The position numbers were made by a program, and so were the translations under genes. Below the pieces are notes generated by a model that was not told the origin of the DNA, did no database searches, and saw only the letters and a program-made list of their open reading frames with translations. Below are positions 3,717 through 59,862 of a DNA stretch of 64,000 nt, one piece after another. Every line of letters begins with the position of its first letter. Positions within the stretch are counted from its first letter, which is position 1. The DNA is from an uncultured virus (IMG/VR IMGVR_UViG_3300047661_000097) (Duplodnaviria; Heunggongvirae; Uroviricota; Caudoviricetes), in the IMG/VR virus record IMGVR_UViG_3300047661_000097; one strand, written 5' to 3'.

Positions 3717-3725
3717 ACATTACTC

Positions 3726-4319: not shown

Positions 4320-4344
4320 AAATCCCCCAAGCAAAAACAGAAAT

Positions 4345-5564: not shown

Positions 5565-8500
5565 TATCCTCCACCTCCACTTTCAGCAAAGGGCTGCACT
5601 TCTCTATAAGGCCCTGTCGATTCCCAATCTTTTACTTGCACAACAAAGTCTTCTAAATTGAGTTGAAACTGTATTGTGGAAGTAAACTGAAACCACAACA
5701 GTTTCCATTTGCTCGCGCCGCAGACAAGTTTTAATTTTGTTAGCTCACCGCTAGACGACGGAATTGTAATTGCCGGCGGCCCGTAACTGCCGTTATTTGC
5801 ATCCGCTGCATAGCCGGTTAGCGTAATCGTAGATGTGGATGAATACTCCACGATCAACACCGGTCCCAGCGTCTGCCACCCCTTTCCACCAATCGCTGGC
5901 GTCTGTACGATGGCTGTTCCTGTTTCCGTGCCGCCGCTGGCCAACTGGCGAATGCTTCCATCATTACAACCAACCAGCACGCCCTGCTGGCTTAAGCCTT
6001 CATTTGTTGCGTGGATCGAGGCTGGCCATTCATACACATCCCACACCCAACCCATCGCCTGAATATCAAAAACCAACGTTCGTGGAATACTGGTTGTGTC
6101 GACATAATCGTAGTAAAGATATCCATTTACGATTGAAAATTTTTGTAATTGCGGTTGCGAGTCGTCAGGCGGATAAACTGTTACGCCTTCTCGCGTTATC
6201 GGCTGTGGTACGCTGGTTCCGCCATCTTTATCTTCATGCGGAAAAAGTGACTCTAAATCCGAATCGGTAATAGATTTTGAAGCACCGCCTCCGGGCGAAA
6301 AGTGAATTCCGTCATCCACGCGAAAGAAAATTAGTCCTCCGCCTTCGATCGCTACGCAGCGCGGAATAAACAGTCCGCGGTTGATGCTTGTAGCCTGCAA
6401 GGTCCAAGTTGAACCAGTAGTCCCCGTTACAGTGGCTAAAGCATTAAAAAAGTTGGGCATGATGACCCATGCCCGCCGGATTGAAAACAGCACACCCCGG
6501 CCACCAGACATGGCACCGTTAACCAGAGGCTCGCCAGGATCGGTCACGTCCATTTGGTTGGTATCCGGTGCCGCATCAAGATTCGATCCCGAGCACCAAT
6601 AGAGCGTTCCCGGCCGCAGCGTATCACCCACGCCAAATGTGTAGTTGATGTTGTCCGTAGGGCCAAAAAGATACGGTAAAGGCTGCGCGGCCAGGATCGG
6701 TTCAGCAATTTCATAAGCTAAATCCGTTCCGTCAGGAACGCCAGGAATCGTAATTTCGTTAACAAAACCGTCTGGAACAACAATGCCCTTGTCCTTAAAG
6801 GTCACGGTTCCGCTCACCGTTGTACCGCCAGTAGTGCTAAAGGTCGGGGTTAAGCTGCCAGAAATTCCCGCCGCCGTAACAAGCTGGTAATGGCCATTGG
6901 TATCTTCAATAACCCAGTTCAAAGCATATGCGGTTAAAGCTGCAAAATAACTAGCTGAAGGCCGCGAAATAAACGTATAGGCCAAAGAAGTAGGAGAACC
7001 AATCTTGATAATTGTTCCTGCCAGCCAGCGCGTGTTGAACCCTGTTGCTGTGCCTCCAATTGCTCCCCCGCTAACCCAAGTAATTACGTTACTTGAAACC
7101 GTGCAAATTCCTTTCTGCGGCAAATCGATCGAGGGAAACGGTTCATAGTTGGTGTAAACAAGTAAATCTGTACCAAGTTCCGTGTCTGTTAACGAATCCG
7201 AAACTGGAGTATTAGTTCCACCGCCACCAAGATCATCATTTGGTCCCGTGCAAACGTAAGTAAAATCCGTGATGGATGTGTCAACGCGGTAGTAATCAAC
7301 CTTGTCAACTTGTGGATCGTTAGACCATAGCGATGTAATGGTGTTTGCTTTGACGGGAACAGATTCTGCCGTCGATTCAGGCGACGGATTAGAAGTTGCT
7401 CCCGTTGCGCTGGAGCGATACGTGTAGCGATACTGCACCTCTTCTCTAACCGTATTGCTCAAGGGAAGAACGATCGTCGGCGTAGTTACGCCAGATATCG
7501 TTGATGATGCAGTTGGAGAAACCATTAAAAGAAGAATGCGGCCGGAGTGGTACCAGAAGTCATAGTCGATTTCGATTGAATGAATTCCAGCCGACGCAAA
7601 ATGCAAAATTACAGTCGTAACCGTGCACTGACCGCCTTCGTTATAATAAGTTCCGTTATATTTCAGCGGAGCAACAGGCAAAAGAGCAATGCCGCTTACC
7701 ACTGAAATTGTTTGGCCATAAGAAGAAATTTGCGATTTACTTAACGTAACTGTTCCCGCAGTTGTTTCTTCATTATTGGTCATGTATGTTGCTGTGGCCG
7801 AAACAAAGGTGGGGCTTCCGCCAATGCCCCAGATTGTTTGGTCTTTATTGGTTAAAACAAATTTGTAATATCCCCCTGCTGGAATATAAATACTTCCAGT
7901 CAAACAAAAATTAAAGTTTGTATACGTTGTGCTGGTTGTATAAGTTGACGTTAGGGGTGAAGCAAACACGGCGTTCGAACCAGAAACAACACCCTCCGCA
8001 GTCAGTTGAAACCATTCCATCGGATTATTTATAACGTAGTCGGCAGTTCCGATAGAAATATCCACACCAGGTAGTCCAGGAATTCCGGCGGCAAGAGGCG
8101 GAACGCACGCTGTACCAAACGAGGCATCAAATATAAAAGAATTTCCTGTTGTACTTCCGTCCGCATTAGACGTTGAGCGGGTTGGTCCACTACCGCCAGA
8201 ATCATCTGGGTTTTTCCAGATGTAAGCTCCCACTTGACCTGACGACGGAGAATCTCCCCAATAACTAAGAGACAATGTGCCAAGTGTAGATACTACCAAT
8301 GGCAATGCATTAGTTGTTACTGTCACTGTAATGCTAAAAGATCCAGAGTTATTGCTAAAAGTGTTTCCGGTTGAGTCGATGCCGATTTGCAGCGACACGG
8401 CATTGCTGGGAACAGTAATCTCTATACCTAAATTACCGCCCACGTCCACAATGTTTTTGATATAAAGCGGAGCTTGGCCAGCGGCAATTACATTGCCGTC

Positions 8501-9829
8501 ACCATCCGTAAATGCTCCAATAATGATCGATGGAACCGTCGACGGAGGAGACACGCCGCCAGTCGGTTGCACGTAGTACCCTGGATTAGTTGAGGCCAGC
8601 GCCAGCCCTGCGGCCGTCGGGGTTGTAATTACGTTTCCGTTGATAATCACCGTGTCCGTTGGATCAGGAATGGTAATTGTCACGGTTGTTGCATTTTGCA
8701 CGTTAATTGTGTATGGCGCTGTTCCATCAACAGGAGAGGTAGTATTTGGGTAGCCTTCGGTTTCGCCGTAATCAAAATCCGAGTTTGTTCCCACTGGATA
8801 GTTTGTCCATGGGATTGCCGTTGCATACAACACACCGGTTGTCGTCACACTAGAATTCTCGGTGGAGACAGACGGAGCAAGTTGCGGCTCCTTAATGCCC
8901 ATCTTGTAGCAAACACCATCCGACCGAACCTTCATCATGCCGTTCGACGGAAAATCGTCAGCGGTATGGCCACCTCTGCTATTAGTAATTAAAAATTCTG
9001 TTTTGAGAGTAACGGCTCCTTGTATAGCAGAATCGCCGACATACATCCACGGCTGAACTGAAGTGTTTGGCCGAAAAGGAATCATTGAAACCGGATTGCC
9101 ACTTAATCCTGTCGCTACTACGGTAGTTCCAGAAAACAAAGTAGTATTGACACCGGTTATAAGCACATAACCATTTGATGGCCCGTTTGGCGTAGAATCG
9201 TTTAAACGGCGAATCGTATGTATCGCAGCAGGAGTCGTATAATAAATTGTGACAACAACACTATTAACATATGTCGTTGCTGTTATTCCGCTAAGATTCT
9301 CTACTTCAAATACAGGTGTAAACCCTGCGTTAATAATTGCCGGAGTAACATTCGCTCCCCATATAGAAGTACTGCTCCCAAACGTATATGTTGCGACTGA
9401 AGTCGTTAGCGTAGCTTTATCAACAGTTGCCCCTGTTATTCCAAGTCCAAAAGATAGCGATTGCGATCCAGATGATGCATATGCGTTGCAAGTTATTTCT
9501 ATGCCTGCGATTGTCGCGGTTGTTGGAATTGTTTGCGCGCCAATATTTAAGGATAACGTGCCTGATCCAGAATCGGCGTCTACAGATACTGAAGTGTATA
9601 ATGAGGTTGATGTTGCATTTGCAGGATTAGTCCAATAATCACTGCTGCACGTAATAGTGGGGACAAGACTATAGGGGTTTCCCACAACTTCAATCGCATT
9701 TGTAAGCAAATTGCGAAAGTTGATGCTACCAACAGAATAGGAACGAACATTTTGGGCAATACTTACCGAGCCGCTAAGCATGCGGTTTGGCGGGTGAGTC
9801 AAATCAAGCCCTTTGAAATTGAGCGCCAC
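5564..9829 (-). CDS. Large tail (nozzle/tubular-B-like) protein with inserted beta-sandwich domains
   Basis: About 1420 aa. Likely GTG start at 9829, because the track's ATG lies inside the leader element. C-terminal part resembles podophage nozzle/stabilisation proteins; the centre is PA14-like. Confidence 0.55.
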   Translation of the reverse strand: MALNFKGLDLTHPPNRMLSGSVSIAQNVRSYSVGSINFRNLLTNAIEVVGNPYSLVPTITCSSDYWTNPANATSTSLYTSVSVDADSGSGTLSLNIGAQTIPTTATIAGIEITCNAYASSGSQSLSFGLGITGATVDKATLTTSVATYTFGSSTSIWGANVTPAIINAGFTPVFEVENLSGITATTYVNSVVVTIYYTTPAAIHTIRRLNDSTPNGPSNGYVLITGVNTTLFSGTTVVATGLSGNPVSMIPFRPNTSVQPWMYVGDSAIQGAVTLKTEFLITNSRGGHTADDFPSNGMMKVRSDGVCYKMGIKEPQLAPSVSTENSSVTTTGVLYATAIPWTNYPVGTNSDFDYGETEGYPNTTSPVDGTAPYTINVQNATTVTITIPDPTDTVIINGNVITTPTAAGLALASTNPGYYVQPTGGVSPPSTVPSIIIGAFTDGDGNVIAAGQAPLYIKNIVDVGGNLGIEITVPSNAVSLQIGIDSTGNTFSNNSGSFSITVTVTTNALPLVVSTLGTLSLSYWGDSPSSGQVGAYIWKNPDDSGGSGPTRSTSNADGSTTGNSFIFDASFGTACVPPLAAGIPGLPGVDISIGTADYVINNPMEWFQLTAEGVVSGSNAVFASPLTSTYTTSTTYTNFNFCLTGSIYIPAGGYYKFVLTNKDQTIWGIGGSPTFVSATATYMTNNEETTAGTVTLSKSQISSYGQTISVVSGIALLPVAPLKYNGTYYNEGGQCTVTTVILHFASAGIHSIEIDYDFWYHSGRILLLMVSPTASSTISGVTTPTIVLPLSNTVREEVQYRYTYRSSATGATSNPSPESTAESVPVKANTITSLWSNDPQVDKVDYYRVDTSITDFTYVCTGPNDDLGGGGTNTPVSDSLTDTELGTDLLVYTNYEPFPSIDLPQKGICTVSSNVITWVSGGAIGGTATGFNTRWLAGTIIKIGSPTSLAYTFISRPSASYFAALTAYALNWVIEDTNGHYQLVTAAGISGSLTPTFSTTGGTTVSGTVTFKDKGIVVPDGFVNEITIPGVPDGTDLAYEIAEPILAAQPLPYLFGPTDNINYTFGVGDTLRPGTLYWCSGSNLDAAPDTNQMDVTDPGEPLVNGAMSGGRGVLFSIRRAWVIMPNFFNALATVTGTTGSTWTLQATSINRGLFIPRCVAIEGGGLIFFRVDDGIHFSPGGGASKSITDSDLESLFPHEDKDGGTSVPQPITREGVTVYPPDDSQPQLQKFSIVNGYLYYDYVDTTSIPRTLVFDIQAMGWVWDVYEWPASIHATNEGLSQQGVLVGCNDGSIRQLASGGTETGTAIVQTPAIGGKGWQTLGPVLIVEYSSTSTITLTGYAADANNGSYGPPAITIPSSSGELTKLKLVCGASKWKLLWFQFTSTIQFQLNLEDFVVQVKDWESTGPYREVQPFAESGGGG

Positions 9830-9855
9830 TTTGCCCTTATTTGAAAAAACAGCAA

Positions 9856-9922
9856 TGGCCCAAAACCATTGCTGGTCTTGAGCCATTGCTTGTTCGCCAC
9901 AGGGCGGGGCATGTTGCTCGAC
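9856..9922 (-). promoter_or_regulatory. Conserved structured late-leader element, copy 2 of 5
   Basis: Same core motif and hairpins as the other four copies. Confidence 0.75.
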
Positions 9923-9959
9923 GACTTATTTTACGCTTTTCATTATTTCATATTTGAGC

Positions 9960-11291
9960 TTATTTTGTTTTATCGCTTGGCTGTGTTTTTTGCGCTGCAT
10001 CGTTGTACCGCTCTTGATTCCGGTCTTGAGCCTGTCCGCGCTGTATCAAAATATCGCTAAAGCTACCCGTGCTTTTAAGTCGCGAGTTTTCCGCCGAGCA
10101 CGCTTGAATTGCTCGCGACTCTAATTCCAAAGCCGATTGGAACTCCGCGCCCGCCATCTTAAAGGTCGCATAGCTCTGAGCTAGATCTAAAACAATATCC
10201 CAGTTGCTGCGCGACACTTGAACATAATCGGCATCTAATGTTGGCACTGGTGCGTTCGCCAATACCGTTGCCCCAATACCAGATCCTGTAGGCGCGGCAA
10301 GAAAGTCAATTCCACCAATTACGATGCATGGGCCAAAACTTGTTGGCGTTGAATCCCATTCCGGCGCATATCGATCCATAGCAACAATTGAAGGCATATC
10401 GGTAGCTGCGCCATTTACCTTTGCTAACATTATCCAAGGCGTTTTTAGCAACAGATTTAGTCCATCCTGATATCTGCGCAAGCAATATCCAGCTCGCAGG
10501 CGATCCGTGGCCTCGCTTTCTCGTCCCAAAAGATCGGCCAGTGCTCCCCAGATCAACACCCACGCAAAATCGTTCGGAATGTTTAATAGCGTAGCCGTTG
10601 GTGAAGAAAAAGCTGCGCCCGATTCAAGTACTACAGCTTCATACTTTCCCGGCAAATTAGGCGTAATGTCGACATCCCAAGCAAGCGGTGGCTCCGAAGA
10701 CAACATAAAGGTACTTGGAGTTCCAGAGCCTAATTCGTACAATGGCGCTTCGTAAAACTCCTGTGCCACCGTATCGTCACGATAAAGAGTATTAGGGCTT
10801 CCGGTTACCGGCAAATAGCGCACGCGCGCAACGTCTATAACCGTGTCAGGAAGAATGGTCCGGCGCGTATTAGGAACAACTGCAATATTAGAAAGCAGCA
10901 ACTGGTTGCAGTTTGAGATCTGCAACATTTCATCGCGACGATGCTGCAAAGCCGCAGAAAAATCATTAATGGTAAACTGCGAAGTGCCGGTCCAAGTCCC
11001 CCCCGTTGGCGGCTCCATTAGCATGTATTCCATTAAGGTATAGCAATAGGTATCCGTAAGCGTTCGTTTACGCGGAGAGTTGGTTAAGGTCGCTAACGAA
11101 TTCCAAAGCGTTGATGAATTAAAAACAAAGTCTTGTTTCCAAGTAAACGTAAGCACATTGAACATGCGCAATGCTTGGCAAACATAAATTCCGCATTCAG
11201 CATCCGTCCAAAACACATTTCCGCTATCAGCCAGTCGTGCCGCTAGCTGCTGACGTGCGGTCGAAAATGTGAGCCAGCTATACGCAGCCAT
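9960..11291 (-). CDS. Virion adaptor / tail tubular-A-like protein (443 aa)
   Basis: N-terminal 'RQQLAARLAD..FWTDAE' and 'LNIPNDF..LIWGALA' patterns are typical of phage adaptor proteins. Confidence 0.5.
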   Translation of the reverse strand: MAAYSWLTFSTARQQLAARLADSGNVFWTDAECGIYVCQALRMFNVLTFTWKQDFVFNSSTLWNSLATLTNSPRKRTLTDTYCYTLMEYMLMEPPTGGTWTGTSQFTINDFSAALQHRRDEMLQISNCNQLLLSNIAVVPNTRRTILPDTVIDVARVRYLPVTGSPNTLYRDDTVAQEFYEAPLYELGSGTPSTFMLSSEPPLAWDVDITPNLPGKYEAVVLESGAAFSSPTATLLNIPNDFAWVLIWGALADLLGRESEATDRLRAGYCLRRYQDGLNLLLKTPWIMLAKVNGAATDMPSIVAMDRYAPEWDSTPTSFGPCIVIGGIDFLAAPTGSGIGATVLANAPVPTLDADYVQVSRSNWDIVLDLAQSYATFKMAGAEFQSALELESRAIQACSAENSRLKSTGSFSDILIQRGQAQDRNQERYNDAAQKTQPSDKTK

Positions 11292-11339
11292 TGCTTACCT
11301 TTTTGATGCCATGCGCTTTTCTATACAATCATCCAACAG

Positions 11340-11534
11340 TTATTTTCTGCTGGCAATCCTTTTTCTGCGTTTACCTTTTTTACTTAAAGACTTACGCGGC
11401 CCTATTCGACCTTCCTTACGCAAATACGACAACAAAATCGCTTTTGCCTGTTTCTTGTTACGGACGATTTTTCCTCTTCTTCCAGAATGTAGCTGGTGCT
11501 TGCGAAACTTTTTCATGATTTCGCCAGCGGGCAT
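11340..11534 (-). CDS. Small highly basic protein (64 aa)
   Basis: Very K/R rich, with 'MKKF..HQLHSG.RGKIV.NKKQAKAI.LS'. Confidence 0.6.
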   Translation of the reverse strand: MPAGEIMKKFRKHQLHSGRRGKIVRNKKQAKAILLSYLRKEGRIGPRKSLSKKGKRRKRIASRK

Positions 11535-11540
11535 AAACCC

Positions 11541-11873
11541 TCACTTTGCTGCGTTGTCTCCTGCCACAGCAGCAGGTTTAGACAAATTTGTTAATCTTGA
11601 TACCGTTCCATGGATGCCAGCAGAACCAAGCGCTGCTGTCAAAATGATAAGCAGCGAATTGGTTGTATAAAGCTGGTCAGACGGTATGGCAATTGCCGCT
11701 CCAAGTGCATTTAACACCAAGTTGAGCGCCGCCGCTACCGTGCCGGTAATATACGGCCCAATTAGCGGGGAGTGCTTAACGATCTGCAATACGCCGTATA
11801 CCACCACAGCAATTGCAAGAATCTTTGCAGCGGGCGGAAAAGTAAGAACCACATCAATCAAAATTACTGCCAT
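11541..11873 (-). CDS. Putative holin
   Basis: 110 aa with about 3 hydrophobic segments, directly after the endolysin. Confidence 0.6.
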   Translation of the reverse strand: MAVILIDVVLTFPPAAKILAIAVVVYGVLQIVKHSPLIGPYITGTVAAALNLVLNALGAAIAIPSDQLYTTNSLLIILTAALGSAGIHGTVSRLTNLSKPAAVAGDNAAK

Positions 11874-11895
11874 GTCTTCTCCTTTTTACAAATAC

Positions 11896-12405
11896 CTATG
11901 TAGTCGTTGTGGCGTTTAAAAACTGCTGGTAGTGCTCAACCAATTCAGTCAAGTTTTTTCCGCCAGGTTGCTCATAATCATTACCGGGAAAACTCGCCCA
12001 AATATTTGAACAAGCCTTAATAGCCATAGAAATATCACCCTTTTCAATGTCATCAATTGCGCTACGTTCTTGAATCTGCCGCACGGCAACCGCATCTTGG
12101 CTAGCCGGACTAAAATCATTTAGATGCAACATCAGCTTATAAGCTTCCCACCATTTAAGTTCTAACTGGTAGCGCCCGCTGGCTGTAGACGCAATGCGCT
12201 TTGGCTTAGTGCAAATAACTTTTGCTGGACGGCCAGATGCAAATGGGTGATCGATATAAATTGAAAAAATCTCCAATCCTTTTTCTCCGGCGGCTTCATC
12301 GCCAGACACAATTACGTCGTAACCATTATTTTTGGTCAGCAAATGCGTACTGGTTCCTTCAGACCAAGCAATGGTATCGAGAAAAGCTTTAATCTTCAGG
12401 TCCAT
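11896..12405 (-). CDS. Endolysin, lambda R-type lytic transglycosylase
   Basis: Motifs AFLDTIAWSEGT, GYDVIV, STASGRYQ, DFSPASQD and CSNIWASFPG match the lambda lysozyme family. Confidence 0.92.
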   Translation of the reverse strand: MDLKIKAFLDTIAWSEGTSTHLLTKNNGYDVIVSGDEAAGEKGLEIFSIYIDHPFASGRPAKVICTKPKRIASTASGRYQLELKWWEAYKLMLHLNDFSPASQDAVAVRQIQERSAIDDIEKGDISMAIKACSNIWASFPGNDYEQPGGKNLTELVEHYQQFLNATTTT

Positions 12406-19567: not shown

Positions 19568-20575
19568 TTAAAACTGTCCGACAAATGCGCAAAGCTGAAG
19601 AGTTTCTCCTGATAGATTTTGACCAGAAACTACCTCTCCTCCAACTGAAACTCCTGCGCTAACAGTCGCAGTGGTAGCTCCCGAAATGGTCACTGTGCCT
19701 GTCGTGGTAAGTGCTCTGCCATTCAGCGTGCCGCCGCCAAGAGTAACGCCGCTCACCGTCAGAATGTTTCCGTTAACTGTCGAAGTCGCTACCGAAGTAA
19801 AAGCACTTCCCGCCACAAAAACAACATTCGCTGCTTGGGCACCGTTTACTAGTGCGACTGTTTGTCCGCTGGCAAGATTGATCGTTGATCCCGCCACAAA
19901 TACAAACACAGCATTTGAATTGCCTTGGGCGTCCAAAATGATGCCTGTAGGCATCGTCAAGCTGGTAGAACCAAAATAGTTGCCGGCAGTGTACGTCGAC
20001 GCTGTCGACCCATTACCGCCAGTACTTAAGTTGGTTAGGCCAGACAATGTCGGCGTCAATCCCTGGTAATAAACAATCGCCGCCGTTAGGGCTGTTTGTG
20101 CGGCCGCTGCGTTGGTGTTGTCGATTACAGCTGGAGAGGTTAAAGTGCCTGGGGGAAAACCGGTAATGCTTGTAGTGGGATAGCTCCCGATGTTTCCGCC
20201 CGTAACAACCGTATTCCCTGTGTTTGTAATGCCGGAATATGCCAGCATCGCATAGTTAGCGGCACTGCCAAGACGTGTGGTAACAACTGAACCACCACCG
20301 CTCGAGCTGGCAAGAAACCACCGCAAATACCATGGTTGCCGAGTGCCGATTGCGGTTGGCCCTGCGTAAACCACATAATTCTTGCTTACGCTCTCCACAC
20401 CACCAACAAGCGCATCAATGTAATAGTTTGGCAGCGCCAGCGTTACCAGATCTCCCGTACCAGCAACATAAGATACAGGCCCAGAGCCACTCCCAACAAA
20501 GAGTCCACGCCGGCCAGCAAATTCTGGATAGAGTGCGCTAGCACCGGTATTTCTTCCAATTGCTGTGAGAATCAC
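19568..20575 (-). CDS. Virion protein with inserted ice-binding (DUF3494) domain
   Basis: 'LGSAANYAMLAYSGITNTG...TSITGFPPG...LDAQGNSNAVFVF...LVNGAQAANVVF...NGRAL' matches DUF3494. Flanks are paralogous to 20617-20979. Confidence 0.85.
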   Translation of the reverse strand: MILTAIGRNTGASALYPEFAGRRGLFVGSGSGPVSYVAGTGDLVTLALPNYYIDALVGGVESVSKNYVVYAGPTAIGTRQPWYLRWFLASSSGGGSVVTTRLGSAANYAMLAYSGITNTGNTVVTGGNIGSYPTTSITGFPPGTLTSPAVIDNTNAAAAQTALTAAIVYYQGLTPTLSGLTNLSTGGNGSTASTYTAGNYFGSTSLTMPTGIILDAQGNSNAVFVFVAGSTINLASGQTVALVNGAQAANVVFVAGSAFTSVATSTVNGNILTVSGVTLGGGTLNGRALTTTGTVTISGATTATVSAGVSVGGEVVSGQNLSGETLQLCAFVGQF

Positions 20576-28231: not shown

Positions 28232-30841
28232 TTAATCCCATCCTCCTACCCCAACGGCATTAAGGGAGCATACAGAGTGGCTAAGCGGCGGATTTATATT
28301 TGTTGGCGGTGAATAGCGTCGTTGCGCACGATCCGCCAATACATCCATGTCGTGAACCGTAAAGTACGATTGCGCAGCTGCGCGTACGCGGTCGTCATGG
28401 TAACCGCTACGATGCACCATTTTTGAAGCTCGGCCGGCGGCTTCATGGCGCTCCAGGGTCTTTAACTCTTCAATTAGCCACTTTGACGACGGTCGATACC
28501 AACCTCCATTTACGGCTTCCGTAAAGCGCGTCATCAAAATAGGCACGCTCCATACGTTTGAATACCAACCCTGCTTTTTGCTTGAATCGTCTTTAATCTT
28601 TTGGCTATCGTAGCGCTTTGGCTTGTGATGGTTATGGAATCCCATTAGCTTGAGCTGGTGTTGGCAAGTATCGCCAGGTCGGCTGATCTGTTCTACGCAA
28701 AATTTGACACCCAACGGGTTTTTGGTTCGTTCGCCATACCAAGCAGCTAAACAAGCAGCAAAGCCTACAATTTGTGCTGAATTTATCCTATTTGAAGTAA
28801 GTTCTGCCACTTGAATATCGCACTCATCACCAAATCTATTACGTGTCAAAGAAACGCAAGTGCGATCTTCATCCTCTTTTCCCAAACCATCAGCTGTATC
28901 AATTCCGCAGCTATAATCACAGCCCGGTTTTGGCTCTTCGTAAACCAAAAGCTTGTCTAGGGTATCGTTTTCTTCTTCTTCGTCTACCGTTTTTAATGGC
29001 ACCAAAGTCCAGAAAAATCTTTGTCCGCGGTCCGAAGTCCAATTAACACGAATATGTTGTTTTTCATAATCAATAGTCGTTTCATCAGGGTAAAACTCTT
29101 TGCCAATCGAATCACCAGTAATCGCGTATGCCTGAATTGGATTTTTTCTTTCAGCTTTACCATTTGGCTGAATTTCATAAACATACTTTTCGATTTCATC
29201 AATCACGTCAGAATCAAAAACACTGTCATGAACACCAGTTAAAGCCTCAAAATCATCGGCAGCCATTTGTGCAAACCAGATTTTTTGAGTATGGTTCTTG
29301 CACGCTTGGGAATAGTTAAACTCCCAGAACCATTGCTGCTCAACTGGCATTCTCCAATCTTTGCCTACTACTTTAGTTAAATATGGAGTATTACGAACAT
29401 AAAGTTCGCAACGCGTTATATGTTTGCGCGTGGCATCAATTGGATGCCAATCGCCAGGAATAGGAAATTTTCGAATCCAATCTTGCTCGGGATAAAGATC
29501 CGGCACCATAACCCAAGGAATAAAAATCGGGCAAAGCCGTGAGCGCCCTTTAGGCCAGTCTTCTTTAGCTGCGCGCCAAGTATCGGCCAGCCAGCCGGTG
29601 TTGCCGCCACCAGTTCCTTCAAAAACCAAAAACAAGTTGCGAGAGGAGTGAGTGGCCCTAAGTAGACCTTCCTCGATCACTTTCTTCGGTTTAGGTATAT
29701 CCGCTAACTCAGAAACGTGAATGGCCGTAGGTGTCCATCCTTGGGCAATTCCGGTCGCTTGCATACCAGACTGGATCGATAAGATCGATCCGTTCTCGTA
29801 GGAATTTTTTGATGTAGCTCTAGGCACAAGCCACCAAGGACATTGGTTGTAGACAGTATTTAAAATACGGCCGATCAATTCGGATTTATCCGATTGCACC
29901 GAAGCCATTACAGCTTGCGTATGTGGAATGAATAGCAGCTTATGAATAAATTTCAACGCGGTTTTGGTAGAATTATGCGATACAAACCCCTCGGCAATAA
30001 AGGTATGCGTTGAAGTTTGGATGTCAATCATCCGCTGCGGCGGAAGGGACTCCACCTTTACAACTTTTTTTAATTCAGTTGTTAGTTTAACTATTTTTTC
30101 AGATTTAATTATTCGCTCTTTGCCAAATGCGACATATCTGATTTTGTCGCCAACAATAATATCTTTGGTAAACTGCCAGCAAGCCTTTGTATTTTTATAG
30201 CCTAAAAAGCGGTGTTCTGGCGTCGCAATTAGTATGCGGCCGTCTTCAAACGTTAATCGTATTGCAGGTTGAAACACATCCCATTTAGCTTTAATTGTTG
30301 CCGTACTCATATACCATTTTTGATTATTTGTGTTAATTTCTTTTACAGCTACGACTTCTTCGCCAATAGCTAAATCATCAATCCGTTTCCACTCCAATTG
30401 TGCAGTAAGGACTTTCGTATCGGGCGATAGGCACATACCAACTTGCCGCGCCTTGATAACAAGCAACTCAATTGAAACTTGTTTTTCGTCAAAGTCCGCA
30501 ATTACTGAATCAAATATTTGTTGGGAAAGCCGGTTCTTAAATTTATAGATTTGGCCTTTTTCATTGCACACGTAGGCATAGCGGCTTTCAAAATAATTCG
30601 AGTCAAGGCCGCACAGTGCCTGCTCATTTTCAATCCAATGCCAAACTTCTTTACGACGTTTTTCAGAGATGGTACGGGTAAGAGTTACGTATGAAGATCG
30701 AGAGTTGCTCTCAACTTTTACAATAGAGTTGATGTAAGTCTTAAATTCATCTACTTGTTCAAGGGTATGATAGGTCGGCATCCATCCTTCGCGAGCTGCA
30801 AACTCGGTCAGGTTCGCCAGGATTACTCGTTCAGAATACAT
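28232..30841 (-). CDS. terL: Terminase large subunit with intein
   Basis: Walker A 'KARQVGM/ST', Walker B 'IHVSE', nuclease 'GIDTADG' and 'HDDRV'. Confidence 0.9.
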   Translation of the reverse strand: MYSERVILANLTEFAAREGWMPTYHTLEQVDEFKTYINSIVKVESNSRSSYVTLTRTISEKRRKEVWHWIENEQALCGLDSNYFESRYAYVCNEKGQIYKFKNRLSQQIFDSVIADFDEKQVSIELLVIKARQVGMCLSPDTKVLTAQLEWKRIDDLAIGEEVVAVKEINTNNQKWYMSTATIKAKWDVFQPAIRLTFEDGRILIATPEHRFLGYKNTKACWQFTKDIIVGDKIRYVAFGKERIIKSEKIVKLTTELKKVVKVESLPPQRMIDIQTSTHTFIAEGFVSHNSTKTALKFIHKLLFIPHTQAVMASVQSDKSELIGRILNTVYNQCPWWLVPRATSKNSYENGSILSIQSGMQATGIAQGWTPTAIHVSELADIPKPKKVIEEGLLRATHSSRNLFLVFEGTGGGNTGWLADTWRAAKEDWPKGRSRLCPIFIPWVMVPDLYPEQDWIRKFPIPGDWHPIDATRKHITRCELYVRNTPYLTKVVGKDWRMPVEQQWFWEFNYSQACKNHTQKIWFAQMAADDFEALTGVHDSVFDSDVIDEIEKYVYEIQPNGKAERKNPIQAYAITGDSIGKEFYPDETTIDYEKQHIRVNWTSDRGQRFFWTLVPLKTVDEEEENDTLDKLLVYEEPKPGCDYSCGIDTADGLGKEDEDRTCVSLTRNRFGDECDIQVAELTSNRINSAQIVGFAACLAAWYGERTKNPLGVKFCVEQISRPGDTCQHQLKLMGFHNHHKPKRYDSQKIKDDSSKKQGWYSNVWSVPILMTRFTEAVNGGWYRPSSKWLIEELKTLERHEAAGRASKMVHRSGYHDDRVRAAAQSYFTVHDMDVLADRAQRRYSPPTNINPPLSHSVCSLNAVGVGGWD
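29972..30433 (-). mobile_element. Mini-intein (154 aa) in TerL Walker A
   Basis: Begins CLSPDTKVLT, has block B 'ATPEHRF', ends 'FIAEGFVSHN' followed by Ser. Too short for a homing endonuclease domain. Confidence 0.92.
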
Positions 30842-32378: not shown

Positions 32379-32804
32379 TTACTGGGATAGTTCTACATCT
32401 TCTAGTGCCGATGCTTCGACATTATGACGTTGATAGCGCCGTTTCTTGATGACCGGATTGCCAGCTTCGTCACGGCTAAGCGTAGGAACATCCTGATTGC
32501 TACGTTGGCGTACAACATTAAGCTGCGGCTCAAGGGGTATGTCAACGCGGCCCTCGGCAACTTTTTCGATCACATTGTCAATCGGCTTGATAGGAGGTGC
32601 TCCGACAATAATTTTCGAGTGGATTTCTTCTGTATCCAAGCCGCGAAGCCGCAGATGGTATTCAATCGAACCATCATAGCCACCAGGATAGGAATCAGTC
32701 GCGCGTAGATTGCAATCGTTATGAAGTTTTCCATCTAGTTGATCGAGAAGGTCGTTAATGATCTCATCTCCCGTCAAACCTTCAACATAATCATCTTCTG
32801 CCAT
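32379..32804 (-). CDS. Hypothetical acidic protein (141 aa)
   Basis: First ORF downstream of the repeat array. Confidence 0.55.
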   Translation of the reverse strand: MAEDDYVEGLTGDEIINDLLDQLDGKLHNDCNLRATDSYPGGYDGSIEYHLRLRGLDTEEIHSKIIVGAPPIKPIDNVIEKVAEGRVDIPLEPQLNVVRQRSNQDVPTLSRDEAGNPVIKKRRYQRHNVEASALEDVELSQ

Positions 32805-32835
32805 TGATAACCGCCTTTGTTAACACACATTGCGC

Positions 32836-34063
32836 GTTGCATTTCTTCAATGCACTTAGCACGATTACTATATAACTAGCACAAAAACGAATTCGTGTAA
32901 TGCACTATTTATTTGCCCGTCTAAGATTGTTGCATCTGTTCGATGCACTGCTTGAAGGGTTTTGAATGTGGTGCTTATGCAGCACCCTTTTAAAAGTCTC
33001 CTTCATCCAAGGTTGCGCTTGTTCAGCGCACTGTACAATTTCTTTCCTGGTTGCATTTGTTCAATGCACTTTGATCTCATCCCCAATGAGTTGCATCTGC
33101 TCGATGCACTACAACTTTGTTGCTATGCGCCTGCCGCTATTTTTTGCCATTCCGTGGCGTTGCATCTGCTCGATGCACTAATAAGCAAAAACGAGTTGGA
33201 CTTGGCGATGTGTTGCATTTGCTCAATGCACTTTCCCTATTCCGAGCATCGAATGGTTGCATCTATTCGATGCACTGTGAATTGCGCGGGCCGGTCGCTA
33301 CTCCGGCTTCCTTATTCCAAAGGACCGTATCTAGTGGCGATAAACCTGTCCAACTATCAACGGGTGTCTGCTTTCCACGCCGCCGCGCAAACTTAAACTT
33401 CTTCGATCTTGATCTTAAAAATACGCGCCATCAGCTTACGCTTTATAACGTAATCCTTCGTCATATACAATCAATCAGCTCAATCACCTCCCTATGTCTC
33501 GTTGCATCTGTCCGATGCACTCCAACTTCGTTGCAACCGTGCAGTGTTTTCGCCGCTACAGGCTTCTACATGTTGCATCTGTCCGATGCACTACAAATTC
33601 ATTGAAGCCCTTCAGCATCATCGTTTTGTTCGGGCTTATCTTCGTTGCATCTGTGCGATGCACTACAACTTCGTTGCAACACCATCACCAGACATAGCAG
33701 GCTCCGTTTGAATAGTTGCATCTGTTCAATGCACTCCAACTTTGTTGCAGCGCGCCCTGCAAAGCGTTGCAATCCCTATCAAGACCAGTTGCATCTGCTC
33801 GATGCACTACAACTTCGTTGCAGCCATATATGAGGCTTGAGTCTTGCGGTCTGATCCAAGTTGCCACAAATTTCCCCGTTGCATCTGTGCGATGCACTGA
33901 TAGCCCCGTCCCCGTTGTTGCGTTTGTTTAGCGCACTGTGGCTTGGCTTCAAAAGGCCACGAATCCAAATAGTTGCATCTGCCCGATGCACTACAAATTC
34001 GTTGCAGCCGAAGTTTGGTGCTACATTCCAATCTGAACTCGGTTGCATCTATTCGATGCACTG
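32836..34063 (-). CRISPR. Cas-less CRISPR-like array, 17 repeats (7 full 37-nt, 10 truncated ~21-nt)
   Basis: + strand consensus GTTGCATCTGTNCGATGCACTACAACTTCGTTGCAGC. Starts at 32836, 32929, 33012, 33050, 33090*, 33159, 33212, 33256, 33501*, 33572*, 33644*, 33715*, 33788*, 33878, 33917, 33972*, 34042 (* = full). Unique 33-36-nt spacers lie between full repeats. Confidence 0.85.
33282..33390 (-). ncRNA. tRNA-like structured element inside the array
   Basis: Closing stem TTGCGCGG/CCGCGCAA, D-arm-like GTGGAAAGCAGACAC, enlarged CCGT/ACGG arm, variable-arm hairpin TCCTT/AAGGA, and T-arm-like GCCGG-AGTAGCGA-CCGGC. Confidence 0.55.
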
Positions 34064-34348
34064 TGTTCCTTTCCGTTGTTTGTATTTTACTTTAAGCGCC
34101 AGGAACTTTCGAATCGTCTCCGGATGCGGATATAAAACTTTGCCGCCTTCAATCATTTGTACGGTACGCCGGCCGACGCCTAAAATCTCAGCGAGCCGCT
34201 GTTGGGTGAACAGGTTGTCGCGCCGGAACTTCGACCATTCGCTGGCACGTTTTTTGCTTTCTTTTTCAAGCACTGATTTTTCAACTGCCGATTTAAGCAT
34301 GACGGACTCGCTTTTTGCTAACTTGCTCTCGATTCTGCGCTTTGTCAA
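34049..34348 (-). CDS. XRE-family HTH regulator abutting the array
   Basis: 'RRDNLFTQQRLAEILGVGRRTVQMIEGG'. The stop codon lies inside the first repeat. Confidence 0.8.
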   Translation of the reverse strand: MTKRRIESKLAKSESVMLKSAVEKSVLEKESKKRASEWSKFRRDNLFTQQRLAEILGVGRRTVQMIEGGKVLYPHPETIRKFLALKVKYKQRKGTQCIE

Positions 34349-34682
34349 CTGGGCTTTTCAGCATTTTTCGCAAGCGATCGATTTCGGTTCTAAAATCTTC
34401 GATTTGCGTATCCGCGCCCTCTAGAACCCGTTGCAGATAATCGCGTTGTTCGGCCGTAATTTGTAAATAATACTGCGCTTTTTGTTCCACGAGGAACGCT
34501 TGCGCCATGCGACGAACGGAACCGTTCAGCCGATCGCGTTCCGCCTTAAAGATGTCGCGTTCAAGCGCGTCCTTTTGCAGACGCTGAATTTCTGGCACAA
34601 TTGCCTTTTCGTCTATACCGCCCATTTCTTCGCGTATAGCGTCTACAAGCGCTTGCGCTTTAGACTGACTTGCCTTTTTCAT
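34293..34682 (-). CDS. Coiled-coil hypothetical protein (129 aa)
   Basis: ORF coupled to its neighbours. Confidence 0.55.
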   Translation of the reverse strand: MKKASQSKAQALVDAIREEMGGIDEKAIVPEIQRLQKDALERDIFKAERDRLNGSVRRMAQAFLVEQKAQYYLQITAEQRDYLQRVLEGADTQIEDFRTEIDRLRKMLKSPVDKAQNREQVSKKRVRHA

Positions 34683-35038
34683 TGCGTAGCCTCGAGCTGC
34701 GATTTTTCAGCTTTGTTTATGAGGTGTATTCGCCGCTCAATATGATTGCACGGGGGATCAAGCATGTAAATCAAGTGCTTTTCTCGACTCTTTCTTGCAT
34801 TAGAATCGAGTATTTTTTCAAACGAAAAGTGCGATGGATTGTAGCTCAAAATATGCAAATACCGAATTTTCTCGCAGCGCAAAATCGCCAGCAATCGTGC
34901 CTGAATGTTTTGTGTTGCTTCGACATAGATCCATTCTTCGCCGGTCTTGATCCCAAAAACGCCAGCGACAACGGGTACGCAGTCCAGGATCTGGACTTCG
35001 GTAAAGGGCTGTATTCCTTCTTTATCAAATGGCATCAT
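34679..35038 (-). CDS. Small GIY-YIG-like protein (degenerate)
   Basis: 'AGVFGI...WIYVEATQNIQARL...REKHLI...PPCN' follows the GIY-YIG layout. Confidence 0.5.
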   Translation of the reverse strand: MMPFDKEGIQPFTEVQILDCVPVVAGVFGIKTGEEWIYVEATQNIQARLLAILRCEKIRYLHILSYNPSHFSFEKILDSNARKSREKHLIYMLDPPCNHIERRIHLINKAEKSQLEATQ

Positions 35039-35161
35039 TATTCCTTTACGTACAATAAATACCGGCCTCTTAGCTCAAAACTATTATTACCAAACTTTTA
35101 AGACGCGCAAGGTAATTTTTCGACTACACTTGATTACGTAAAATGACACTCCATTGCAAAA

Positions 35162-35201
35162 ATGCCAGCCACAATTAATCCCTCCGTGGCTGGCATATTT
35201 T
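35162..35201. terminator. Inverted repeat, putative bidirectional terminator
   Basis: ATGCCAGCCAC...GTGGCTGGCAT flanked by A and T runs. Confidence 0.5.
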
Positions 35202-35621
35202 TACCCTCCGATCGGATCAATTACGACTTTTTCGGTCTATAATCTCTTAAACGAAGTGGGAGTCTCCATAAAGGGCCATCTCTAGACTGCCACTTTCGTT
35301 TTGGCAGAAGGGTCGGGGTTGGTCCTCCTACCATTTGCCAATATGCACCAGCTTTTGCCACCTCGGTTGGGCTGGTGCATTTTTATATCTATTTTTAAAT
35401 TTTCCTGTTCAATCTCGACCATTCTGGAGTACACTGGCTTCCATACAGCAGAAGCGTTTTTTCCATCAACACTCCATGGCCTTCTGCTCCACAGTGGCAG
35501 AACCTTCCTTGGGCCCTCTCTGCCATATAAGGCGCCAGTTACATTGGGGGAATGTAGCTGGTGCCTTATATTCCCCACATTCTTTTTGCTACGGGCTTAT
35601 GCCGCATCAAAGGCCGTTGCC

Positions 35622-36524: not shown

Positions 36525-37302
36525 TTCTGCGCATCGTGGTTTGGGGTTGGTCAAAATACGGGGCGGGGAAGCGTCGACGACATCGCGGCATGGGGGGGTG
36601 CCGGACAACTGCACAACGTCTGATAATGCGGCTCTCGCGCGAATGACAGGGGCACCACTTCCCCCCTGTGTTCGTTCGCATTCTCGGCAGGGATTCACAC
36701 TCTCATTCGTTTCAATCACTTAGAGCGATAACGATCAAATATGCCAAGGATGTAGCACCATAATACGCAAAAAGACAACATAGGGTGACCGCGCCAAACT
36801 CCCAGCATTCACGGGCACCGCGCGCCCTTGTGCCGGCCGCCAGGTGCCGCAATAAGCCGCTCTGCGCGACCTTTTGATATGGGCCCAAAAAGCGCCATTG
36901 AACGCGATAACGTTTCATTCCATTCGATTAAGTTGTTGGCAGATTGCGCACAAAAGTTAGTTTGGCGAGCGGTTTAGGTGTTGTTGTTCTGGCAGTTGGC
37001 GGCGCGGGAGGTTGGCTTGAACCGTTTAGCTTTCGGCATGGAAGTTGTTTGTATTGTGTGCGTTGAATGACTAGGCAGGCAGGTAAGCGTGTAGAGCGCG
37101 CGCGGGGAGCTGGTATGGAGTGCGGCGTTGAAAGTTTGCGCGCGCGAAGGGCTTGGCACTATATAGGGAAGGGATAGATATTAGGGATAGTGAGGAAGTT
37201 TAATAGCCACGGTTTTAGGCCGGTTTTGGGCGGCCGCAGCTTCGCCGGCGTCGTGAAGAGTCTTGTTTGATAAGTTCAGAATCTGGACTGTATGATTGCC
37301 GC

Positions 37303-37323
37303 AGTGCATCGCACAGGTGCAAC
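37303..37323 (+). repeat. Solitary CRISPR repeat handle
   Basis: AGTGCATCGCACAGGTGCAAC is the reverse complement of the 33644/33878 repeat core with one A>G change. Confidence 0.7.
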
Positions 37324-58062: not shown

Positions 58063-58467
58063 TCAATCTTGTCTTGTTGGTTTTGGCTCATCTTTACGCA
58101 CCTCGTGGTAATTAATCCTTACGCTGCCTTTGCGTATATTGCACATGGCATGCGCCGCGCCATTGTACGGCTCCATCTTTCCTGTCTCACGGTTTAAACG
58201 CTCAATGCGATCATCCCGGTGCCCGGCGTCATAACCTCGACCATCTTGGTGCTCAAAAACCGCATCCGCAAGCCGCAACTGACCAGGGCAGTGTTTGATA
58301 TAGCCTTCCAAACAACAACGGCGATTCTGGCGCTCCCACATCACCCTAAGACGCCGCATATATTCGTCACGGCCTTCTTTAGTCAAAAGATTGCAAATTT
58401 CCCGTCCATTGGTCAAAACTCGAATTGTAGGCTTCAATTTGTTTTTCACGGCGCACCAGCCAACCAA
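58063..58467 (-). CDS. HNH-like protein
   Basis: 'FEHQDGRG...HRDD...AAHAMCN..KG'. Confidence 0.45.
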   Translation of the reverse strand: MVGWCAVKNKLKPTIRVLTNGREICNLLTKEGRDEYMRRLRVMWERQNRRCCLEGYIKHCPGQLRLADAVFEHQDGRGYDAGHRDDRIERLNRETGKMEPYNGAAHAMCNIRKGSVRINYHEVRKDEPKPTRQD

Positions 58468-58788
58468 TTAAGTTGTTTTTTCGCGATACTTATCAAAATC
58501 GTCGCAGGTAACCCAATGCCCTATCGCTGGCGTATCTTCTGTCGGCATGGGGTTCATAGGGATGTTGCGGCCTTGCGGCGTCAACCACCATTCAATTTCA
58601 GCTTGGCAAATAACGCATACCCCGTGGTCTGAAAAACGGTAACCTGCTAGCCGCATTCCATTCGCATTAGCAGAAAATGGCATTTATCTTTCTCCCGAAA
58701 AAAGGGGAATCCAATTGCATACTTACGCCGGATCCCCCCCCTGCGCCCATACAAGCTGGCAGTGCCGGTAGTACCGTCAACTTGTTCG

Positions 58789-59601
58789 CTACCCTTGCGG
58801 CGCAAAACTTTGTTTGTCTAACTTGTCTCCGCAGCAAATTGTTAGAATTTCCCCCATATCATGAATGTGAATTGCTAACAATTCTTGCAGCCTTTTCAAA
58901 TCATCAAAGGTTTCAGCACTTGTTACCGCCTGTGTCAGCCGAGGGATCGACTCGGTCAAAAAGCCCACCAGCGTCGGCCGGTCGTGGAATTCGGCGATCA
59001 TCAGTTCAATTGCGTATCCTTCATCGTCAATGCCGTGTTCCGCCTGCCAATCCTTTAATCCCTGCTCAATCACTTCCCGCTGCGCTTCTTTCACGCGCCA
59101 TTTCATGGTGACGTATACTTCGCCCACTGCCTTGTTTTCTTGCCGGGCAGTTTCTAATACCAATTCGCCTTCAAAATCCCGCGTAGTCATGGTGGCCGCA
59201 GATCCAACAATGGCTAAATCCTTACGCGTTTCCATAGGCGCTACGGCCAATTGTTCAGCGTTTTCAATTGACATTGCAATGAACTGCTCTTTAGTCAAAT
59301 GTTGAAAGCGTTCCGCCAAGCCAACCATCTTGTACCAGGTTGAACGGCCAATACCCGTTGACGCACGATAACTTTTTTCGCTGGCAAATCCCAAAACTTG
59401 CCAGGCGTTTGTTGTGCGCAAAAATGCGCCTTCCCAACCAATTTCCATCGAATGCTTACTAGCTTTGTGCCATGCTTGCCGTATGCAGCAATCACTTTCT
59501 TTTACCTGCAATTCAAGCTCAGCGCTTATAGCCAGTAATCCTTGCGGCGGCAATGTGGCATCCACCATTTGCAAACTTAGCCCATCACTTGCCATGCTCA
59601 C
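58789..59601 (-). CDS. Hypothetical protein (270 aa)
   Basis: AAGGAGG RBS. Confidence 0.55.
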   Translation of the reverse strand: MSMASDGLSLQMVDATLPPQGLLAISAELELQVKESDCCIRQAWHKASKHSMEIGWEGAFLRTTNAWQVLGFASEKSYRASTGIGRSTWYKMVGLAERFQHLTKEQFIAMSIENAEQLAVAPMETRKDLAIVGSAATMTTRDFEGELVLETARQENKAVGEVYVTMKWRVKEAQREVIEQGLKDWQAEHGIDDEGYAIELMIAEFHDRPTLVGFLTESIPRLTQAVTSAETFDDLKRLQELLAIHIHDMGEILTICCGDKLDKQSFAPQG

Positions 59602-59862
59602 CTCCTTACCTTTTTTTCTTTTTAATCATTTACTTTGTCCGCCATACTCTCAGTCCCCAATCGTCGTACTCTGCCATAAACTCCTTGTTGTTTTTCAATC
59701 CGTAGCGATAAACAGAAACGCTAGAAACGGGCGGAAATCCACTGTTACCTACATTCTGGATATAAATTGAATCGTTCGGTTCCATGTGCGCCAACTCAGG
59801 CACAATTTCCTCTGCTCCCGGAGTGTCGGTTGCAAGCAAAAAATTCTTTTCGACCCGTATCG

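Follow-up and report, generated by a model that had tools for sequence, protein, structure and literature searches.

The subject of this analysis is an array of short hairpin repeats at positions 32836-34062 of a 64,000-nucleotide (nt) stretch of DNA from an uncultured tailed virus (IMG/VR record IMGVR_UViG_3300047661_000097; Caudoviricetes), and by "the window" we mean this whole stretch. A 21-nt hairpin unit, which reads GTTGCATCTGNNCGATGCACT on the plus strand and consists of a 6-bp stem (TGCATC/GATGCA) and a 5-nt loop, occurs 17 times within 32836-34062, the copies starting at 32836, 32929, 33012, 33050, 33090, 33159, 33212, 33256, 33501, 33572, 33644, 33715, 33788, 33878, 33917, 33972, and 34042. 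Seven of the 17, those starting at 33090, 33501, 33572, 33644, 33715, 33788, and 33972, are full 37-nt repeats in which the hairpin is joined to a 16-nt part resembling ACAACTTCGTTGCAAC. The spacers of the full units are 32-36 nt long and all different, and over 33501-33830 the units recur with a period of 71-73 nt, which is the arrangement of direct repeats and unique spacers that characterizes a CRISPR array; the remainder is irregular. Gaps of 17, 18, 19, 23, 32, and 34 nt separate the hairpin-only copies, and the array also contains longer non-repeat pieces of 62, 72, and 224 nt. A preliminary description of the locus had reported seven full and ten truncated repeats, with spacers of 33-36 nt and short gaps of 16-23 nt. 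The seven full copies and the mixture of full and short units stand, with measured lengths of 32-36 nt and 17-23 nt. On our own reading of the sequence, however, the first unit (34062) and the last (32856) have 5' halves that are degenerate relative to the family consensus rather than cleanly truncated, so that about eight hairpin-only units, and not ten, are clear.

In the sense of the presumed CRISPR RNA (crRNA), the minus strand, the array falls into a leader-proximal part (33501-34062) with nine hairpin units and a trailer part (32836-33276) with eight, the two being split by a 224-nt non-repeat insert on the same strand (33277-33500). Of the nine leader-proximal units, five are full repeats of 37 nt, with spacers of 34-36 nt, and a sixth, at 33572, is full but degenerate in its 5' half. 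Two more, at 33917 and 33878, are hairpin-only and separated by an 18-nt gap, and the first unit (34042-34062) has a degenerate 5' half at most. In the trailer part the 16-nt 5' half is kept in the unit at 33090 only, and the gaps are 23, 32, 32+16, 19, 17, 62, and 72 nt. Its last two units and the 62-nt inter-hairpin piece (32950-33011) are kept, at about 83-85% nt identity, in the syntenic arrays of three related loci (L004, L018, and L028); the 62-nt piece, conserved in these loci and in L019, contains a GGTGCT/AGCACC stem-loop, and on the plus strand it reads like a terminator, a putative stem followed by CTTTT. The 224-nt insert has no homologue among all the loci fetched. In the minus sense it holds a 22-codon open reading frame (ORF; ATG ACG AAG ... 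GTT TAA), and the GGAGG upstream of it is too distant to look like a ribosome-binding site. An 18th hairpin copy, inverted, lies at 37303-37323; beyond this, no copy is found in the 64-kb window at up to six mismatches, except for one overlapping six-mismatch match within the array.

Judged from sequence, the crRNA sense is the minus strand of the window, as the preliminary description had proposed, and five lines of evidence agree on this assignment. Hairpin and cas12 are on the same strand in all six of the hairpin-bearing effector loci listed for relatives (eight are listed, two of them distant and without hairpins), which places the crRNA sense on the minus strand here. TATAAT-like leader promoters precede the arrays of the family in this sense, and the 5' flanks of the two protospacers described below, TCGTTC and TCGTTT (n=2), are T-rich when read in it. 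The 287 unique units contain 29 stem pairs that are not Watson-Crick, and these read as G:U in the crRNA sense in 20 cases and in the other sense in nine. Finally, the full repeat is predicted to fold at -12.0 kcal/mol in the crRNA sense, with two hairpins, vs -7.9 kcal/mol in the opposite sense. From the strand, the position of the hairpin, and its conservation, the crRNA would consist of the 3' part of the repeat followed by the spacer.

On the evidence of covariation, selection acts on the structure of the hairpin. Among 66 variants of the hairpin, 98% of the cells in the stem are paired, and the 51 double-change cells are matched in none of 500 shuffles and compare with 0-17 in slid controls. 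The covarying pairs are the three inner ones of the six (AU/GC, UA/CG, and CG/UA); the outer AGTGC and GCAAC are invariant by construction, because the search pattern fixed both. All three stem variants noticed at the outset (TGCATC/GATGCA, TGCATT/AATGCA, and TGCGCT/AGCGCA) are present in the array, and compensated variants occur in hairpin-only units as well, with TGCGCT/AGCGCA at 33012 and TGCATT/AATGCA at 33050, 33212, and 32836. Moreover, the last unit of the window differs from its L004 orthologue by a C:G to U:A swap.

An exact-pattern scan finds the hairpin at 53 loci on 23 IMG/VR contigs. Long arrays in which the units recur every 71-72 nt account for most of these loci, a contig often having several of them, and many of the 23 contigs are related to the phage in the window through large proteins with 40-95% identity; L004, L018, and L028 are syntenic with the window at 78-89% nt identity and have an array in the equivalent position. 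In three loci (L001, L024, and L038), a gene for a 745-770-aa protein with a PF07282 domain (Cas12f1-like TNB) lies upstream of the array and shares its strand with the hairpin read as AGTGC...GCAAC. The distance from the end of this gene to the array is 70-120 nt in L024 and L038 and about 2.1 kb in L001, where the order is cas12, cas4 (PF01930), cas1 (TIGR03640, type I-C-like, 473 bits), a 96-aa cas2-like ORF, and the array. The association with cas genes expected of a CRISPR array is thus found in relatives, not in the window or its extension, and with it the cognate cas locus for which a database search of the repeat had been suggested. The occurrence of the same hairpin repeat directly downstream of a RuvC/TNB gene also bears out the earlier description of the array as type V-like. 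A scan of metagenomes yields 62 effector loci, of which 36 have at least one hairpin and many others are short. The effector-bearing relatives are temperate, and the longest of their contigs, of which there are several, reach 120-130 kb.

These observations also bear on whether the hairpins belong to a CRISPR system at all. A regulatory or RNA-processing motif of another kind, such as a terminator, an attenuator, or an element like the repetitive extragenic palindromic sequences, might be expected where, as here, the hairpins occupy the intergenic space separating two genes of the minus strand and one of them stands 31 nt before a start codon, and the window contains no known Rfam family. The 71-73-nt period with unique spacers, the cas12, cas4, cas1, and cas2 genes that flank the same repeat in relatives, and a spacer of one relative that matches another phage at 37 of 37 positions (see below) leave this explanation almost no probability.

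The effectors of the relatives form a family of 111 clusters with 37-94% identity, labelled in the public sources searched only as "hypothetical" or "zinc ribbon domain-containing protein [Terracidiphilus sp.]". Their motifs (GLDIGWR, E, QDxNAA, and CxxC..CxxC) are those of a RuvC domain split by a zinc ribbon (TNB), as in type V effectors, and all matches in profile searches of the PDB and in fold comparisons are Cas12 or TnpB. The best profile match is Cas12m (23vw_A, E 1.6e-19; also 8hio), followed by TnpB and Cas12f. In a Foldseek search with an AlphaFold model of the effector (predicted local distance difference test score 82.6), ranks 1-4 are Cas12m2/Cas12m (8hhl, 8hio, 8pm4, and 8hhm; E 1.8e-20 to 4.6e-17, template modeling (TM) scores on the target of 0.51-0.58, 13-15% sequence identity), Cas12f occupies ranks 5-10, and CasLambda, Cas12g, Cas12o, and Cas12p are far lower. 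By profile and by predicted fold, without a phylogeny, the nearest named subtype therefore appears to be type V-M (Cas12m). With a length of about 750 aa and 13-15% identity to the solved Cas12m proteins, the family may be a branch of V-M or a subtype of its own; the full-length homologues are mostly 711-783 aa, vs 577-614 aa for the solved Cas12m chains and a compact size of about 600 aa for V-M.

Two other assignments were considered and dropped. Cas12f/Cas14, to which the preliminary description had likened the repeat, ranks below Cas12m both by profile (E 3e-5 vs 1.6e-19) and by fold, and its effectors have 400-550 aa, vs about 750 aa here, and work with a tracrRNA. Cas12p ("hacker") effectors have 500-700 aa, use a trans-activating RNA, and rank 42nd by fold, and are a different thing. 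Among 30 effectors, the three RuvC acidic residues are D in 23 (E in six, Arg in one), E in all 30, and D in 27. The first of these positions, residue 443 in L024, is Glu in six of the 30, including L001 and L038, and Arg in one, which may point to an altered nuclease chemistry in some members, comparable to that of Cas12m. In PMC11013384, Cas12m proteins are reported with D-E-D, H-D-D, and N-D-D triads, and because these vary, a D-E-D triad in the present family cannot settle whether the effector cleaves or only binds its target.

Additional sequence from the phage itself is provided by IMG/VR contig 3300036421_000021 (L032), which is 100% identical to window positions 58292-64000 and continues for 12,089 nt past the right end. 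Three more arrays of the same repeat, with at least 8, 8, and 16 units, lie in this extension (1-12089), as do recA and genes for an ERF recombinase and a tyrosine integrase. The phage is therefore temperate and has at least four arrays. Two loci (L219 and L221) are 83% identical to positions 605-5861 of this contig and show cas12 (7001-9241), a six-unit array, and then the region homologous to L032, which itself starts inside the array that corresponds to the six-unit one. On this synteny, cas12 should be located just past the end of the L032 contig, and we consider it quite probable, from the arrangement in L219 and L221, that this phage has a cas12 of its own. The earlier view of a Cas-less phage is probably incorrect, since its closest relative (83% nt) has cas12 just upstream of the matching array, even though the accompanying observation that no cas gene is visible in the window is confirmed by library scans and by an effector profile. 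Separation of effector and arrays is also observed elsewhere in the family, contig 3300017941_000010 having cas12 and arrays 20-28 kb away.

The two parts of the repeat differ greatly in how they are kept. In arrays adjoining cas4-cas1-cas2 (L001, 11 units; L210, 22 units) the 37-nt repeats are fully identical, with a pairwise identity of the 5' halves of 1.00. The corresponding value is 0.80-0.86 in arrays beside cas12 alone, 0.25-0.77 in distal arrays in general, and 0.57 and 0.25 in the two halves of the window array, while that of the 21-nt part is 0.84-1.00 across all array positions. Moreover, L001, L210, and the host Telmatobacter bradus have the same 21-nt hairpin part but mutually unrelated 5' halves of 16 nt. 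As the hairpin alone is common to systems with unlike 5' halves, the parts deleted in the window are the non-conserved ones, which lends comparative support, short of proof, to the earlier suggestion that the short repeats are handles from which a dispensable part has been removed. Short-spaced units make up 34 of 352 unique units in the family and spacers of 16-19 nt 11 of 347 unique spacers, mostly in the window phage and in phage contig 3300050034_000403 (L002). One 18-nt unit of the window phage has its first 13 nt in common with a full spacer from an array nearby, which is what an origin of the short units from full ones would produce. Two neighbouring units of the array beside cas1 in L001 (10526-10647) have an identical spacer, CAGAACTACTGG..., and represent a tandem repeat-spacer duplication.

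Decay of this kind raises the question of whether the array is simply a dead relic, shaped by drift and deletion, in which the hairpins survive for lack of time. Degenerate 5' halves, irregular deletions, the phage-unique 224-nt insertion, the failure to find targets, and the lack of a cas gene in the known 76 kb (the window plus the 12-kb extension) are what a relic would show. Against this, the compensatory double changes keep the stems paired, also in the four hairpin-only units named above, while neighbouring bases drift; hairpin identity is 0.85-0.87 where 5'-half identity has fallen to 0.25-0.57; and the array sequence occurs in the RNA libraries of four runs. We regard a dead relic as very unlikely.

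We propose instead that this is a distal array that no longer acquires spacers, part of a type V system that a family of large temperate phages of peat Acidobacteriaceae carries as its own. It would be transcribed on the minus strand, within or just behind a leftward transcription unit. The Cas12m-related effector of about 750 aa would recognize no more of the repeat than its final 21 nt (AG-UGCAUC-loop-GAUGCA-AC), with the guide following this handle, and the 5' half would serve mainly in acquisition, perhaps also in processing, and would be kept uniform only where cas4-cas1-cas2 recopies it. Far from these genes, the 5' half may drift and be deleted, sometimes together with the distal end of the spacer, and what is left would be units reduced to the hairpin, the guides of some being 17-23 nt long. 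Whether the hairpin alone suffices as the handle and the truncated units give usable guides is, like the presence of cas12 in this phage, a conditional part of the scheme, whose shown parts are the anatomy and covariation of the hairpins, the tie of the repeat to cas12, cas4, cas1, and cas2, the orientation, the gradient of decay, and one protospacer in a relative. Taken as a whole, a decaying distal Cas12 guide array of a phage-borne system, with its effector outside the window, is in our judgement the probable explanation of the locus.

Evidence that the system is directed at other mobile elements comes from the lineage of L210. All 37 positions of its leader-proximal spacer are matched in IMG/VR contig 3300048040_000027, where the 5' flank is TCGTTC and no repeat adjoins the match, and a second spacer of the lineage matches the same contig at 27 of 34 positions (21 of 22 at positions 2-23) with TCGTTT as the flank. 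This contig is from an unrelated tailed phage with TerL, portal, and prohead protease genes and a GC content of 58.7% vs 48%, so that in relatives the system targets another phage. With respect to RNA, positions 32769-33130 and 33451-33776 are represented, at 0-2 differences, in metatranscriptome contigs of four runs, each from a different study; parts left uncovered in these runs, such as 34143-35400, are no evidence of silence.

Several findings weigh against our interpretation, the first group of which concerns the effector. No cas gene was detected in the window or its 12-kb extension (76 kb) with library scans and a hidden Markov model (HMM) built from 30 effectors, for which nothing in these sequences scores better than E 1.6, vs 1226 bits for the control, and the best match of the window itself reaches only E 1.7-1.9; the scan of the rest of the genome that had been proposed has given no effector in the 64 kb plus 12 kb. 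The records of four relatives, of 89 kb (82% complete by CheckV), 73, 60, and 53 kb, and an 18-kb record extending the window also yield no effector match, empty answers that are weak in themselves. Extension of L032 to the left by its first spacer leads to the same contig only. Effectors were obtained from only four of the 23 IMG/VR contigs, so truly Cas-less members of the group may exist, and this phage is possibly among them. A second group concerns the handle. In the 5' half, a G..GCAA.G core retains 82-93% conservation, which indicates some constraint, and the 17-nt "spacer" at 33033-33049 looks to us mostly like a 5'-half remnant and hence not a guide. The crRNA scaffold of solved Cas12m proteins is about 29-36 nt long and pseudoknotted (PMC10442227 and PMC11013384), and given this and the two-stem fold predicted here, a 21-nt handle may be insufficient.

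The third group concerns targets and expression. None of the spacers of the window array has a protospacer in the collections searched. The preliminary description had suggested a spacer search for a shared 5' protospacer-adjacent motif, and this gave nothing for the window array itself and T-rich flanks for the two protospacers of the L210 lineage (n=2). Initially 252 and later 347 spacers of the family have no match in any of the loci fetched, outside arrays; matches to GenBank phages are limited to one chance match (E 0.4), and plasmids give none. Comparison with 401 genomes of the Acidobacteriaceae family returns hairpin-length matches only, a negative that rests partly on unpublished genomes in that set (G013, G036, G184, G258, and G279). 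Exact-match IMG/VR scans with the leader spacer of the window and one L032 spacer give nothing or the array itself, and that with the first L001 spacer gives only a self-match. In the reverse direction, host spacers have no convincing match in the phage loci, the single 20-nt match being array-to-array. Nor is there a self-target seed of at least 14 nt from the guide 5' end in the 76 kb. Finally, the RNA evidence consists of contigs only, which give neither strand nor transcript ends nor level, and DNA carry-over is possible.

If the short units are not guides for interference, they might be decoys, that is, RNA anti-CRISPRs (Racr) against the Cas12 of a rival prophage, or crRNA-like promoter repressors of the CreR/Cracr type. 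Phage repeat mimics and "Cracr arrays" are described in 10.1101/2024.10.29.618823 and PMC10651486, and a type V-A example among them combines only the 20-nt hairpin part of the repeat with a guide having a match of about 10 nt. Racr/Cracr elements share several features with the locus studied here, being phage hairpins that derive from repeats, lack neighbouring cas genes, and often lie just behind a promoter, with V-A examples that keep the hairpin-forming 20 nt or so and can be stacked like an array. The solitary plus-strand unit at 37303-37323 (AGTGCATCGCACAGGTGCAAC), which is conserved in L018, fits this anatomy, as a promoter-like site (TTGATA-18-TATGAT, 37267-37296) ends 7 nt before it, and L002 and L007 also contain promoter-then-hairpin modules. 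In L024, a lone TGCATT/AATGCA hairpin (7556-7576; also L184:6987) lies 23 nt before the likely true start of cas12 with a ribosome-binding site between them, which suggests autoregulation through the effector's own handle. In addition, two guides are common to a T. bradus mini-array and L002, with conservation limited to their first 15-20 nt, and the temperate lifestyle of effector-bearing relatives makes a resident prophage Cas12 a plausible rival.

A regulator of the CreR/Cracr type would have a guide with at least nine matches, next to the protospacer-adjacent motif, to the promoter of a cas or toxin gene. The evidence on the other side is that no seed-matching target, including a cas promoter, is found in the 76 kb, where the best self-matches are 11-14 nt long and start away from the guide 5' end, and that the near-match of the L002 guide is within a coding region and within chance. 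Moreover, the truncated units are interleaved with ordinary full units, having spacers of 34 nt, in one array, and the guide of the solitary unit is no better conserved than its flanks. Racr/Cracr RNAs mimic a host system, and the cognate effector here is the phage family's own. We judge decoys or repressors rather unlikely, and a decaying guide array remains our preferred reading of the hairpin-only units. Separately, we observe that the TGCATT/AATGCA variant is common to the L024 lone hairpin and the last hairpin of the window, 31 nt upstream of ORF 32804-32379.

The window is part of a temperate phage of peat Acidobacteriaceae. Directly upstream in the crRNA sense, a 99-aa ORF (34049-34348, minus strand) has weak HTH_19/HTH_3 matches and a stop codon that falls within the loop of the first hairpin. 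A promoter-like site (TCGAAA-17-TAAAAT, 34084-34112, minus strand) 22 nt upstream of this hairpin is weak, with a score of 9/12 that shuffles reach equally well. On the other side, a minus-strand block of structural genes is headed by a 141-aa ORF with no assigned family (32379-32804, minus strand), the ATG of which follows the last hairpin (32856-32836) at a distance of 31 nt. The window also encodes an endolysin, a major-head-like protein, an 869-aa intein-bearing protein, SSB, a primase-helicase, methylases, and a resolvase, with few family matches overall, and scans for Rfam families and tRNA genes return no match. The 869-aa ORF (28232-30841, minus strand) has 74-92% identity to large proteins of relatives and an intein splicing domain (PF14890, residues 152-290) at 35.5 bits, just below the Pfam cut-off of 35.8; with a 1383-aa version in L004, intein content seems to vary among relatives. 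A 335-aa protein of the structural region (19568-20575, minus strand) has an ice-binding-like domain (PF11999, E 2.4e-32), in a phage from peat and permafrost. The array sequence is present whole in 14 peat and permafrost DNA runs, and the nearest genome record (G001, 11.7 kb) has no hairpin.

Hairpin arrays are not confined to phages. A scan of genomes with a loose pattern gives mostly single chance matches, and only multi-copy loci were used; among the matches listed, these are all from Acidobacteriaceae except for one 2.2-kb contig of a "proteobacterium" bin. The same 21-nt hairpin forms three small arrays, of 8, 2, and 2 units, in the complete genome of T. bradus DSM 23630 (NZ_CP184532.1), a member of the Acidobacteriaceae; they are located at about 1.032, 1.034, and 0.862 Mb among housekeeping genes (L181:19871-20000; L182:11-607 and 2136-2228; L117:8001-8094). 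Their 5' half, GTTACATCGCAGATAA, differs from those of the phages and is uniform internally, and neither an effector homologue nor Cas1 nor a PF07282 domain is found in this genome. Other multi-copy host loci are present in Terracidiphilus and in metagenome-assembled genomes of Acidobacteriaceae. The guides of one two-unit T. bradus array, AACAGCATCCCGTA... and GCGTCAAGGA... (L117:7986-8073), are those that recur in the irregular array of L002 (9808-10218) and its relatives, and limited conservation at the guide 5' end is the pattern that would be expected of crRNA-like regulators. No target was identified for these two guides; one candidate for the conserved L002 guide, inside a 175-aa ORF with two mismatches in 14, was dropped as being within chance expectation.

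These host arrays raise the further idea that the 21-nt hairpin is a shared handle, such that any RNA with this hairpin would be loaded by a Cas12m-like effector regardless of who encodes it. A common handle of this kind would explain the upkeep of the hairpin in Cas-less arrays both of phages and of host chromosomes, such as the three of T. bradus, and we advance it as a tentative idea only. If it is correct, hairpin-only units with 17-19-nt guides would be naturally minimized working guides that fit the heteroduplex of about 17 bp of a Cas12m-type effector, and the array would be the most compact natural multiplex guide array known, used by a Cas12 subtype unnamed in the sources searched. 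Hosts and Cas-less phages could then arm, or be armed by, a Cas12 supplied in trans from a prophage or an infecting phage.

Several components of the decaying guide array that we favour are of kinds already known, namely phage type V systems, Cas-less viral arrays, degenerate phage repeats with tiny spacers, and repeat-mimic RNAs. Type V-M systems (Cas12m2, GoCas12m, and MsCas12m) have the nearest relatives of the effector, a location on mobile elements, and guiding by crRNA only. Two stems are predicted for their repeat (PMC11013384), as for the one here, and the 17-bp heteroduplex of Cas12m2 (PMC10442227) matches the short guides of 17-19 nt here. They differ in an effector of about 580-615 aa, vs 725-783 aa and 13-15% identity in this family, most members of which have D-E-D, and in a pseudoknotted scaffold of 29-36 nt, vs 21 conserved nt of repeat. 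Here, moreover, the carriers are temperate phages with several arrays each, some having a type I-C-like cas4-cas1-cas2 module. Phage-borne type V systems (CasPhi/Cas12j, CasLambda/Cas12l, and Cas12r of Thermus Lalka phages) likewise place a compact Cas12 beside arrays with spacers against mobile elements, and according to 10.64898/2026.04.20.719267 the repeats of Cas12r arrays are degenerate as well, adaptation genes are absent, and one spacer fragment is as short as 6 nt. The family studied here differs in its several arrays scattered over the genome, the graded decay to hairpin-only units, and the occurrence of the same handle in host chromosomes; CasLambda ranks 16th and 38th by fold (TM scores 0.26-0.30), and neither it nor CasPhi is matched by sequence.

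Engineered minimal Cas12a arrays combine truncated direct repeats of about 19-20 nt with guides of about 20 nt. Their tandem layout of handle-only repeats and short guides is the same as that of the window, but they are designed and use another effector, whereas the units here are natural. As far as the literature was searched, three elements are new: a large family of Cas12m-related effectors in phages of Acidobacteriaceae, the graded decay of repeats to the handle, and arrays in a complete host genome without effector or Cas1 that have only this handle in common. Neither the effector family nor the phage group is named in the literature searched; supplementary repeat lists, which lay outside this search, could bear on the subtype.

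The arrays provide what appears to be a natural dissection of a CRISPR repeat, suggesting that 21 of the 37 nt are kept for the RNA and that the other 16 nt serve mainly in spacer acquisition. If hairpin-only units work, they would offer a very short handle and a compact format for a multi-guide tool. The unnamed effector family is common in metagenomes from peat and permafrost, and the phages of Acidobacteriota that carry it have been little studied. Since a complete host genome contains orphan arrays built on the same handle, one may ask whether these phages and their hosts make use of Cas proteins in trans.

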